Below are positions 9,110 to 33,055 of a stretch of DNA of 64,000 nucleotides, piece after piece. The position numbers and the translations under genes were made by a program. Under the pieces are notes generated by a model. It did no database searches, was not told the origin of the DNA, and worked only from the letters and a program-made list of their open reading frames with translations. The DNA comes from Octopus vulgaris. Lineage: Eukaryota. The DNA is taken from the NCBI GenBank assembly GCA_951406725.2, contig OX597827.1, positions 62,310,001-62,374,000 on the forward strand, read 5' to 3'. The stretch's first letter is position 1. The number at the start of each line of letters is the position of its first letter.

Positions 9110-10160
9110 CAGATACAAAGCCTGGAATGTGGGGGAGGAGTATAGTTGATTTCATCAACCCCAGTACTCAACTGGTACTTAATATATCGATCCGGAAAGG
9201 ATGAAAACTAAAGTTGACCTCGGCGGAATTTGAACTCAGAACGTAGTGACGGGCGAGGTGGCAGAAACGATAGCACACCGGGCGAAATACTTAATCCGTT
9301 TGTTAGTCCTTGTTTGTCTCCTCTGTGTGTATCCCCTTGTGGGCAGTAAATAAATAGGTATTTCGTCTGCCGCTACCTTCTGAGTTCAAATTCTGCCGAG
9401 GTCGACTTTGCCTTTCATCCTTTCGGGGTCGATTAAATAAGTACCAATTACGCACTGGGGTCGATATAATTGACTTAATCTGTTCGTTTGTCCTTGTTTG
9501 TCTCCTCTATATTTAGCCCCTTCTGGGCAGTAAAAAAATAGGTATTTCGTCTGCCGCTACCTTCTGAGTTCAAATTCCGCCGAGGTCGACTTTGCCTTTC
9601 ATCCTTTCGGGGTCGATTAAATAAGTACCAGTTACGCACTGGGGTCGATATAATTGACTTAATCCGTTCGTCTGTCCTTGTTTGTCTCCTCTATATTTAG
9701 CCCCCTCTGGGCAGTAAATAAATAGGTATTTCGTCTGCCGCTACGTTTTGAGTTCAAATTCCGCCGAGGTCGACTTTGCCTTTCATCCTTTCGGGGTCGA
9801 TTAAATAAGTACCAGTTACGCACTGGGGTCGATATAATTGACTTAATCCGTTTGTCTGTTCTTGTTTGTCTCCTCTATATTTAGCCCCTTCTGGGCAGTA
9901 AATAAATAGGTATTTCGTCAGCCTCTACGTTCTGAGTTCAAATTCCGCCGAGGTCGACTTTGCCTTTCATCCTTTCGGGGTCGATTAAATAAGTACCTGT
10001 TACACACTGGGGTCGATATAATCGACTTAATCCGTTCGTCTGTCCTTGTTTGTCTCCTCTATGTTTAGCCCCTTCTGGGCAGTAAAGAAATAAGAACGTA
10101 GTGATGGGCAAAATGCCGCTAAGCATTTCTTTCAGCGCGCTAATGATTCTTCCAGCTTAC
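9110..10160 (-). mobile_element. SINE family B copy (9110-9256 + 10093-10160) split by an inserted SINE-B array
   Basis: Both halves are contiguous in the family consensus; duplicated agaacgtagtga(c/t)gggc(g/a)a at 9238-9256 and 10093-10111. Confidence 0.75.
9257..10092 (+). mobile_element. SINE family B tandem array, 184-bp period (about 4 units plus partial head)
   Basis: ggtatttcgtc recurs at 9357, 9541, 9725, 9909; units carry B-box-like GAGTTCAAATTCC and GCCTTTCATCCTTTCGGGGTCGAT...AAGTACCAG (resembles the MetaSINE central domain). Confidence 0.9.
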
Positions 10161-11955: not shown

Positions 11956-12350
11956 CCAGTTCGAATATTATAAGAGGACGTTCAGACTTGTAAACAAGCC
12001 ATTCACTGTGTTTTGTCATTGAATTTTTAATCATCACCGTTTAGCGTACTTATCCCGTAATTTAATTACGATGAGCTGTCGATTTGCGCTACCAGCCGAC
12101 ATATGTTGACTGGAAGAACATGAGAGATTGGCTCTTTTATCAGCTCGTAGAGCCACTGCTCGGTTTCTGTGACTGAAGAGGAGATAAGCACTCCGAAATG
12201 CTAGCATTTCACAGTCTGGATAAGTGACGCTGCGAGCTGATTTGGCTGTATTTTACACTATAATGTCTACAGCGCGAAATATTCTTCAAGACCAATACGG
12301 TGAATGGCTTGCATACAAGTCCGAACGTTCTCTTAGCATATTCGAACTGG
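11956..12350. repeat. About 68-bp imperfect inverted repeat pair
   Basis: 11956-12023 is the reverse complement of 12285-12350; each arm is followed by atcaccg(t/c)ttagcg...ccc in direct orientation. Confidence 0.7.
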
Positions 12351-18775: not shown

Positions 18776-19530
18776 TCGGCGAGCTGGCAGAGTCGTTAGC
18801 ACACCGGGCGAAATGCTTAGCGGTATTTCGTCTGAGTTCAAATTCCGCCGAGGTCGACTTTGTCTTTCATCTTTTCGGGGGTCGATTAAATAAGTACCAG
18901 TTACGCACTGGGGGTCGATATAATCGGCTTAATCCGTTTGTCTGTCCTTGTTTGTCCCCTCAGTGTTTAGCCCCTTGTGGGTAGTAAAGAAATAGGTATT
19001 TCGTCTGCCGCTACGTTCTGAGTTCAAATTCCGCCGAGGTCGACTTTGCCTTTCATCTTTTCGGGGGTCGATTAAATAAGTACCAGTTACGCACTGGGGG
19101 TCGATATAATCGGCTTAATCCGTTTGTCTGTCCTTGTTTGTCCCCTCAGTGTTTAGCCCCTTGTGGGTAGTAAAGAAATAGGTATTTCGTCTGCCGCTAC
19201 GTTCTGAGTTCAAATTCCGCCGAGGTCGACTTTGCCTTTCATCCTTTCGGGTTCGATAAATTAAGTACCGGTGAAACACTGGTGTCGATATAATCGGCTT
19301 AATCCGTTTGTCTGTCCTTGTTTGACCCCTCAGTGTTTAGCCCTTGTGGGTAGTAAAGAAATAGGTATTTCGTCTGCCGCTACGTTCTGAGTTCAAATTC
19401 CGCCGAGGTCGACTTTGCCTTTCATCCTTTCGGGTTCGATAAATTAAGTACCGGTGAAACACTGGTGTCGATGTAATTGAATATCCCCCTCCCCCAAATT
19501 TCAGGCCTTGTGCCTATAGTAGAAAGGCTT
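18776..19530 (+). mobile_element. SINE family B tandem array (4 units, 173-186 bp spacing)
   Basis: ggtatttcgtct at 18822, 18995, 19181, 19364; last unit ends with the alternative tail cccccaaatttcaggccttgtgcctatagtagaaagg. Confidence 0.9.
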
Positions 19531-21794: not shown

Positions 21795-22737
21795 GACTGA
21801 CGTGATGTCACAGCAGCTCCGCAGATAACCCCTTTTTTCGACCTTTTATTGCACACATTTTGTGTCAATTTCTGGACACAAGATGTGTAAAGCACCCAGC
21901 TTTCGTTTGAGTGTGTTTTCAAGGAAGAAATTGACCCCTAGGGGCAGTTTCAAACCTATTTACATTTCTACTTTCTTCGATTTGCCATATTTCTAGATAA
22001 ATATGGCTAAGCGAAACCATGAGGCCGACTTCCTGCCTCTACCAATGCTAGAGGTGAAGGAAGCTCCAAGCAAACCATTCTGCGTGAACGCACACAGGAC
22101 TTAGAAGGCACGAATGCTTCTGCTACTATAACCACTGGCTCCACCACTGCCACCACCAATACCGCCATCACCACCACAACCAACACGAATACTGAAAACA
22201 ATTTTGCCGCAGCTTTAAAGTTAAAGAAAACAGTCATGTGCGTTTCCAAAGAAGAACTGCTCGCCTGTAAAGCAATATTAAAAAAAGACGCCCTCGGCAT
22301 ACAACTAGAGACACCACAAAACATCACGGAAAAAATCGAAAAAAAAACTCCGATTATTTACAGGACACTCAATCTAAAAACAAGGCTATACGAAAATGCC
22401 ACTCAAGAAAATTCAGAAAAATGTTTAAGGCCTATATGGGCCTTTAAAGACTACATCACGTGGGGAAGCAGATTTGCCACGATCGAAGTTCGATTCGACA
22501 GTGAAGAAAGAGCCAAGGACATCTCCACAAAATCCTTTCCAATTTGAAAATTTATTGATGATCTCTACATACCTTGGTCGTAGGGTCACAACAATTAGAA
22601 TGAAGAATGTGCCTCCTGAAATAGAAATAAAATGGTTCGTGTCTGCCATTTCCCATGACATCGAGGACGAAAGCCGTACCTTGGAAATCACTGTTTACGA
22701 AAACAAGGACGGAAAAACAGACGATGTTACACAAATA
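21795..22737 (+). mobile_element. 5' UTR and decayed ORF1 of a Tx1/L1-like LINE
   Basis: Non-repetitive reading frames ...YITWGSRFATIEVRFDSEERAKDI / STYLGRRVTTIRMKNVPPEIEIKWF, resembling RRM-type Tx1/L1 ORF1; begins right after (TCTA)n at 21707-21794. Confidence 0.55.
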
Positions 22738-32101: not shown

Positions 32102-32163
<62 letters not shown>

Positions 32164-32164
<1 letters not shown>

Positions 32165-32627
32165 GTTGTATACTGTCAATCTAACAAGAACGTGACAGTA
32201 GGGGGTACACTACCGCTGTATAGCCCTAGGAAGCATCGAACGCCTCCTGATGGCTTTGACACATTTTTCTCTGTGTCCTTATATACATTTACGAAGGGGA
32301 GACAAACACCCCCGGCTGCCGAAACTGCATCTAGGGACACGTGTTTCAGGATCGTTGTCCTTCATCGGCCTAGAGTAGCAGACACCGGTCAACCGGTGAT
32401 ATTTGTCTCGACTTCGCAATTGTATATATCTATATTCAGTGAAGTCTATTCACTGATTATCAAAATAAGAAATATTGAATTTCTAAATCTCTCGTAGAGA
32501 CATGTACGGTGGTGTGGCGATAGAATGGTTGTATACTGTCAATCTAACAAGAACGTGACAGTAGGGGGTACACCACCGCTGTATAGCCCTAGGAAGCATC
32601 GAACACCTCCTGATGGCTTTGACACAT
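32164..32627 (-). mobile_element. Candidate non-LTR retrozyme: 363-bp unit, about 1.28 copies
   Basis: 32164-32264 repeated at 32527-32627 (2 mismatches); HHR within the unit. Confidence 0.75.
32330..32374 (-). ncRNA. Minimal type-I hammerhead ribozyme motif (U4C core variant)
   Basis: Minus strand tctagg-CCGATGA-agga(caacga)tcct-GAAA-cacgtg-TC-cctaga: perfect helix I (6 bp) and helix II (4 bp), palindromic helix III, GUC triplet. Confidence 0.8.
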
Positions 32628-32639
32628 ATATATATATAT

Positions 32640-32809
32640 GGGGAGAATTCACACACACAAAAAAAAATACAACAAAAGACGAAGACAGGTGGTGTAGACA
32701 ACAAACAGATGTAGTAGTATAACGCTCGGGAAGTGAAAACTCTCGGGAACACAGAAAGAAACAAGGAGAGAAAATAAAGTATGTTTAGTGGCTAGCGATC
32801 TATCATGGC

Positions 32810-32871
<62 letters not shown>

Positions 32872-33054
32872 ATATTGACCGACAAGTCCCCAAATTTTTT
32901 TTATTATTTTCTGTTTATTTCCTCGCGTTCCATTCTGTTGAGGAGCGTAGGGTCTAAAAGTAAAACACTTTCTCATCTTCCCGAGCATCAAAGTAATACA
33001 CCTGCTTGTTGTTTATACACTTGTCTTCGTCTTTCGTTTTTCTGTAAATTTCAA

Positions 33055-33055
<1 letters not shown>
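32640..33055. repeat. Two oppositely oriented copies of a short PLE-terminus-like repeat (related copies at about 38335-38530 and 42015-42225)
   Basis: Shared aaaagacgaagacag...acaa(a/g)cag(a/g)tgtatta...acgctcgggaa; degenerate HHR remnant near 32935-32965. Confidence 0.6.

Follow-up and report, generated by a model that had tools for sequence, protein, structure and literature searches.

The question raised by this locus is whether a short tandem repeat with a hammerhead motif in an octopus genome is a retrozyme and how its more-than-unit length arose. The element lies in a 64,000-nt stretch of the Octopus vulgaris genome (hereafter the window; contig C14 in an assembly of 2.8 Gb and 227 contigs), where the first-pass annotation had described a non-coding 363-bp unit with its first 101 bp repeated at the end, (GA)n and (TA)n tracts on its sides and a minus-strand hammerhead with all three helices. 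These structural claims were borne out. The terminal repeats (32164-32264 and 32527-32627) are identical at 99 of 101 positions and differ at 2, the tracts and the hammerhead are present as described, with (TA)n preceding (GA)n on the left, and no stop-to-stop frame of at least 150 aa overlaps the unit, the GC content of which is 43.8%. Positions within the unit are denoted by u and counted on the plus strand of 32164-32526, and the sense of the hammerhead and of the RNA is the minus strand (Table 1).

Table 1. Parts of the hammerhead element and of its flanks, in window positions.
Feature	Position	Strand	Remark
Full 363-bp unit, 3' lap of the insertion	32164..32526	-	From period and repeat comparison
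Second lap, 101 bp, 5'-truncated, pLTR-like partial tandem	32527..32627	-	Variable 5' end of the insertion
Type I hammerhead motif, core CCGATGA (U4C), palindromic helix III	32330..32374	-	Cut predicted between 32336 and 32335
Very likely target site of Tx1-like LINEs	32387..32403	-	Empty in the window copy; duplicated on either side of the ORF1 cassette in filled copies
Hairpin TCAGTGAA...TTCACTGA	32438..32461	-	
55-nt PLE-type tail	32465..32519	-	32465 is the fixed 'tail' 3' end of the family, internal in the window copy
Fixed 'no-tail' 3'-end motif of the family, internal copy	32520..32546	-	
(TA)n followed by (GA)n, adjoining the fixed 3' end	32102..32163	.	Likely microsatellite target
Short (TA)n at the truncated 5' end	32628..32639	.	

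The window copy is thus a 1.28-mer, which starts from a no-tail 3' end, runs through one complete lap and extends 101 nt beyond it. Its single hammerhead is built of helix I (TCTAGG/CCTAGA), CCGATGA, helix II (AGGA/TCCT), GAAA, the palindrome CACGTG and TC. Both differences between the repeats are rare alleles, each found in 2 of about 100 insertions, and are probably later mutations. At 32164, where the no-tail motif occurs in its terminal copy, the last 7 nt of the motif have given way to the (GA)n tract, and intermediate ends of the form (TA)n(GA)n-AT are present at loci L005, L034 and L072. The hairpin, which may resemble an Inr-like start, has a similar counterpart upstream of the LINE target site in related families. 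A lone motif match would be weak evidence, because the hammerhead descriptor gave a second match in the 64 kb (12167-12214, plus strand, core CTGAAGA); the Rfam scan at gathering threshold returned no match anywhere in the window.

Stronger evidence comes from the family. The genome search with the unit returned 2,282 candidates, of which the 40 scored showed 96-100% identity. The 27-nt 3'-end motif has 1,370 exact genomic matches (these being matches, not insertions) versus 0 for its reversed control, and a 32-nt motif with the CC core has 161 versus 0. The U4 version of the latter motif gave 5 exact matches against 161 for U4C, and these 5 copies may be products of CpG decay. The U4C core was also found in 113 of 119 motifs of the fetched loci and in 30 of 33 at loci picked without the core pattern. 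U4C as decay of the window copy was therefore rejected, as it is the norm of the family. It is a natural variant in viroids, reported to have low activity in vitro and sufficient activity in vivo (PMC3088659).

When 13 motifs of the window family and related families were compared, 96% of helix cells were paired, versus 12-51% in slid controls, and two-sided (compensatory) changes were seen in 10 of 13 helix pairs, although a shuffle control inflates the significance of this covariation because the structure was drawn from the same, related sequences. Helix I differs wholesale between families yet remains paired, and G5, A6, A9, GAAA and U16.1 are invariant across them. Other core changes in related families include TTGACGA, TTGATAA and TCGAAGA, and the L295 family shows a U3-A8 pairing that matches a covariation reported in PMC4209133. 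From the 161 versus 0 matches and the compensatory changes it follows that the hammerhead is more than chance, and the window unit is supported as retrozyme-like, its type I hammerhead being genuine.

Folding of the circular monomer gave a z of -8.8 versus shuffles (antisense, -5.9), with predicted probabilities of 0.7-1.0 for helices I and II. Helix III, which in 49 of 119 copies is the imperfect palindrome CACGGTG, had a probability of 0 in the monomer and a predicted -11.7 kcal/mol in the dimer, so the model predicts it to form solely between two copies of the unit. It should be added that some family copies hold two hammerheads in tandem.

The anatomy of insertions was read in two sets. 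The first comprised 101 distinct insertions with 165 arms, picked for the hammerhead motif or the full unit, and the second 60 loci, 59 of them chosen by the 3'-end motif alone. Copies diverged by a median of 2% from the column majority in the first set and showed a median of 93% identity to the window copy in the second. Duplicate loci were merged by flank, and L030, a duplicate of L025, was left out of the lap, inversion and core counts and kept in the count of arm ends. These two loci (G000:C11:33.64-33.65 Mb) lie 8 kb apart in inverted orientation with identical junctions, and stem either from an inverted segmental duplication or from an inverted arm that is very long.

The first-pass annotation had attributed the terminal redundancy to reverse transcription around a circular RNA and had proposed that the start points of genomic copies be circularly permuted. 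They are not, because the RNA-3' ends sit at two fixed sites: 138 of 165 arms begin near u357 (75) or u302 (63), 55 nt apart, and these ends mostly adjoin (TA)n. The 5' ends are scattered over the whole unit in both sets. In two-arm inverted insertions, one end with the tail was combined with one without it in 33 of 45 cases, two ends alike in 0 of 45, and one end was broken in 12 of 45. Insertion was biased towards (TA)n, as judged from flanks read by eye and without a control count. Arms longer than 370 nt, which run through the whole unit into the next, made up 69 of 165 in the first set and carried no ORF, and the longest array seen measured 3.35 units (L393). In the second set, 78 of 81 arms were shorter than one unit and 3 exceeded it, and for this reason the 1.28-mer ranks among the longer products.

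The random-start rolling-circle reading is thereby largely refuted. Rolling-circle copies made from random starts by an enzyme other than that of PLEs, or local tandem duplication of a dead repeat, could account for 5' ends over the whole unit and for the alleles that laps share (see below), but not for 3' ends fixed at two sites, a tail on one inverted arm only and copies dispersed over many contigs, and we regard this explanation as very improbable. Partial tandems, an inverted 5'-truncated arm and a tail on one end together constitute the anatomy of PLE insertions, as laid out by Craig et al. 2021 (PMC8557442), and all three are seen in the octopus family. We therefore hold with high confidence that the unit was mobilised by a PLE.

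It could be argued that what we call the unit is no more than a pLTR, belonging to an autonomous PLE that has escaped our searches, with short copies as truncation products. Indeed, fixed ends attached to an autonomous PLE ORF had been named in the first-pass annotation as the mark of an ordinary pLTR. The fixed ends were found (138/165 arms), whereas none of about 160 insertions read with flanks of 1.5-3.5 kb, out of more than 1,000, showed an RT/GIY-YIG ORF belonging to the unit. Every insertion hallmark is that of PLE pLTRs, and the insertions read are a fraction of the total; this explanation nevertheless appears quite improbable, given that the 69 long arms pass from one unit into the next without an ORF, that Tx1-type cassettes are the sole inserts that copies of the unit were found to share, and that none of 60 loci with a PLE endonuclease, nor any of 20 longer PLE loci, had the unit as a terminal repeat. 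In a single case (L355) a PLE ORF abuts a copy; it was rejected as the autonomous partner: the junction is nested, because the ORF continues into non-unit sequence in its relative L210.

The unit is best read as a non-autonomous, PLE-mobilised retrozyme, and the genome does hold young autonomous PLEs. One of these is of Neptune type, a class assigned from motifs read by eye (CX4CxxC linker, CCHH GIY-YIG motif) and from weak matches to RVT_1 and GIY-YIG in a relative with 95% identity; its own 1271-residue frame was assigned to no Pfam family. Its inverted arms are about 99-99.7% identical. Its layout is that of the unit, with (TA)n on the flanks and, on one of its arms, a tail (57 nt, versus 55 nt in the unit), and AATATTT near the tail end is common to both; the tails of two other PLE families, judged by eye, are shorter. 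No homology of the unit to the three PLE families was detected by local alignment (z at most 1.5) or BLAST, nor to the pLTR of the Neptune-type element (z 0.7), and because alignable homology is absent, the argument for a Neptune partner is one of tail length, target and timing. Furthermore, the unit family predates the Neptune arms, which are nearly identical, so an earlier relative may be the true partner. On balance we lean towards this Neptune family or a close relative as the partner.

Several PLE repeats bear hammerhead-like motifs of their own. The 3' repeat of the Neptune-type element (L284:7320-8060) contains one with the core CTGATGC (A9C), which was seen by eye and missed by the descriptor, and in another PLE family (L299:4806) the terminal repeat includes a core of U4C type (CCGAAGA). 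A young PLE family (L293-L297), also bearing a hammerhead-like motif (core TTGATAA), has two frames, the first of 330-480 residues and the second an intact RT/GIY-YIG frame of 781 residues. A two-ORF EN+ PLE would be unusual.

The next question concerns the template. A circular one was proposed for PLEs by Cervera and de la Pena 2014 (PMC4209133), but terminal redundancy alone proves no circle, since PLEs ordinarily insert as partial tandems (PMC8557442). More telling are the variants carried by successive laps. Common subfamily alleles were shared 29 times and unshared 9 times, versus 9.7 and 51.7 in random pairs, and 4 insertions shared rare alleles between laps, at 6 distinct sites in all (8 pairs, versus 0.22 in the control), with no consistent difference between laps at any position. 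As laps share both subfamily and rare alleles, one unit was copied more than once, although template jumps on uncut linear RNA or local gene conversion could also produce such sharing. Copying of a cleaved linear monomer would halt the cDNA at the cut site, u172, and no pile-up of 5' ends was seen there (1 of 165 and 3 of 81 ends); this also fits a ribozyme that never cuts. Assembled contigs from four presumed-RNA sets contained short pieces covering the unit and were uninformative on strand, level or circularity. In sum, we consider a circular template reasonably likely. Of the original proposal, random starts had to be abandoned, and what survives is a modified model of priming at fixed sites followed by reading round the unit.

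The main competitor supposes PLE insertion from a linear, uncleaved partial-tandem transcript, with laps made by template jumps and the hammerhead serving as a recognition or structural signal. It agrees with U4C in 113 of 119 copies and the further core changes in related families, with the missing pile-up at the cut site, and with the low in vitro activity reported for PLE hammerheads (PMC4209133) and the cleavage of 1 of the 9 Xenopus dimers tested by Li et al. 2026, the other 8 being inactive (10.64898/2026.07.22.740005). The invariant core residues and covarying helices are, in contrast, as expected under selection for a catalytic fold; the U3-A8 pairing of the L295 family, a covariation on record (PMC4209133), points the same way, and in mussel, repeats of 350-390 bp are indeed a source of abundant circles (PMC7229834). 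A linear template of this kind is, in our view, unlikely.

The explanation we favour, with moderate confidence, is a protein-free hammerhead element of 363 bp put into (TA)n by a Neptune-type PLE enzyme from a template that is circular or otherwise re-read. A more-than-unit copy would be transcribed, and two hammerheads would pair via the ACACGUGU palindrome and cut, presumably slowly because of U4C, to give a 363-nt monomer which would then be ligated. The PLE enzyme (RT and GIY-YIG endonuclease) would nick (TA)n, prime at a fixed site of the unit, 122 or 177 nt from the cut, and read on round the unit until it falls off, which would regenerate more-than-unit copies such as the 1.28-mer.

The unit also receives passengers. 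At 4 of the first roughly 100 loci it contains a 1.7-kb cassette bounded by a u240-u224 duplication and encoding a 459-aa CCHC protein, which is 26% identical (E 2e-29) to ORF1 of an autonomous LINE with a CCHC ORF1 and a 1,140-residue APE-RT frame (ORF2). Protein search with the cassette ORF gave no match at E 0.001, the homologue search for the LINE returned almost only unnamed proteins, and Atlas comparison of the cassette protein provided, as a lead only, CCHC/ZCCHC3-like clusters at 0.90-0.92; the label 'Tx1-like' denotes the architecture and behaviour of the LINE. The insert was rejected as the unit's own PLE or Gag ORF, since it is an ORF1-only LINE relative that is also arrayed without the unit: at L155-L156 (G000:C4:27.05 Mb), at least 7 ORF1-only cassettes of about 1.85 kb stand head to tail with no hammerhead unit. 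Filled copies retain the tail, no-tail and inverted PLE ends, so the composites were likely moved by the PLE route.

In several diverged families the LINEs are flanked by duplications of about 17 bp and sit 28-35 nt before the hammerhead core. Among 63 sites with the LINE 3'-end pattern, 26 had a hammerhead within 55 nt, 24 were followed by a family member, 1 by what is presumably U2 snRNA and 12 by other sequence, some of the latter being degenerate hammerheads; of 530 control AATAAA sites, 1 scored. For one autonomous LINE family, 3' flanks read by eye at 30 of 40 scored loci were hammerhead units in 19, what is presumably the U2 5' end in 4, a further LINE in 4 and other sequence in 3. These flank counts are not independent events because composites hitchhike, and independence is better seen in the occurrence of several LINE subfamilies in at least 5 diverged hammerhead families with duplications of differing length, as well as in a 5'-truncated LINE copy with its own duplication within a unit (L420). 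The target families end in (TA)n and show inversions; one (L295) aligns with the window unit over the whole 360 bp (z 37.6) and another (L220) aligns weakly (z 7.0). True targeting of hammerhead units by these LINEs is very likely. At L205:3109-3490, exactly one full hammerhead unit (core TTGAAAA) stands between two full-length LINEs in an alternating array.

Moreover, at L207:7614 onward, L415, L416, L418 and L419, the same Tx1-like family stands in tandem copies directly before ATCGCTTCTCGGCC, which we take to be the start (5' end) of the U2 snRNA gene. This start resembles the target motif of the hammerhead units, so that one target may have given rise to the other.

For Tx1-like LINEs the unit would offer a safe place to insert, after which the PLE route would also carry the composites; a gain for the LINE from having a ribozyme downstream is conjectural. 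A fuller scheme with three tiers, in which a Neptune PLE mobilises a superfamily of circular hammerhead RNAs of ~360 nt by fixed-site priming and copying around the circle, a Tx1-like LINE lineage has come to insert just 5' of the hammerhead throughout these families and its ORF1 is carried and perhaps used by the retrozyme, can be offered tentatively. If it held, LINE RNA would run into a ribozyme, and ORF1 would be a likely RNA chaperone.

Other repeats in the window should be mentioned. A different repeat follows the element immediately (32640-33055), with a diverged inverted arm across (TA)n at 32812-32868; it also follows the element in L005 and is probably another PLE end nested in the same microsatellite. 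Two tandem arrays, at 9289-10092 and 18831-19477 (4.4 and 3.5 copies), have a 184-186-bp unit that we take to be an octopus SINE-like repeat. By eye, plus-strand frames resemble a fragment of cassette-type LINE ORF1 (22023-22547) and a fragment of a Poseidon-type PLE like that of L355 (1045-1623).

The element is real and represents a new member of the retrozyme class, with its mechanism corrected from random permutation to fixed-site PLE priming. Non-LTR retrozymes have been described in mussel, coral and axolotl, with PLEs as a strong candidate for their spread (Cervera and de la Pena 2020, PMC7229834). Li et al. 2026 argued from 35 genomes, with no mollusc among them, that retrozymes are non-autonomous PLE derivatives, adding co-occurrence and trees, with the mechanism still to be worked out (10.64898/2026.07.22.740005). 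The octopus family bears on which enzyme spreads animal retrozymes and on whether PLE partial tandems stem from circular templates. In this family the anatomy of insertion can be read directly, a candidate partner whose ORFs are intact can be named, and the 363-nt substrate is of a size that allows a clean assay. If a LINE is indeed directed at the DNA immediately before hammerheads, sequence-specific LINEs would have a new class of target. The first-pass annotation knew of no description in cephalopods, but hammerheads are already listed for giant squid, with 235 Hammerhead_1 (Rfam) matches (PMC6962438). The literature searched contained no description of a cephalopod retrozyme, while the supplements of Li et al. 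and of Cervera 2014/2020 might list cephalopod motifs, and, outside Repbase Reports and subscription journals, no report of Tx1 targeting of PLE repeats or retrozymes.

Like metazoan non-LTR retrozymes, as characterised in PMC7229834 and by Li et al. 2026, the octopus unit is non-coding, falls within 150-450 bp with GC below 50%, carries a type I hammerhead and is strongly self-paired; mollusc examples measure 350-390 bp, and PLEs are proposed as mobilisers. Unlike them, its copies are dispersed and mostly sub-unit or of 1-2 units, not long arrays, and its core is U4C; the 'active' criterion of Li et al. is at least 2 consecutive hammerhead units, and the window copy has one. The octopus unit, known from sequence alone, has its fixed 3' ends, tail and inversions counted directly, and no pLTR homology to an autonomous PLE was found. 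With EN+ PLEs of the Neptune clade (PMC8557442) it shares partial tandems, an inverted truncated arm, a one-end tail, (TA)n and a terminal-repeat hammerhead, and differs from them in having no RT/GIY-YIG ORF and a tail of 55 nt rather than the 30-40 bp given there.

Passenger ORFs add a further parallel. In the Terminons/Athena elements, treated by Arkhipova et al. in 2017, hammerhead repeats are reportedly linked to passenger ORFs and moved by the PLE enzyme. Athena elements are telomeric and endonuclease-less (PMC8557442), whereas the octopus units are interstitial, in (TA)n. Known targets of Tx1-clade LINEs include the piggyBac Tx1D for Tx1, U2 for Keno, Mariner for Tx1-Mar, and LTR or Harbinger elements for others (Kojima 2015, PMC4494074). 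The octopus LINE resembles these in its CCHC ORF1 and APE-RT ORF2, duplications (12-17 bp in the clade), tandem insertion and a mobile-element or U2 target, and it shows TSDs and a target preference by Kojima's rule, under which more than 20% of flanks are of one sequence type. It differs from the known Tx1 LINEs in that its target is a hammerhead-bearing PLE-type unit, in several diverged families, and also the U2 5' end, and in that its ORF1-only derivatives are carried inside PLE-ended composites.
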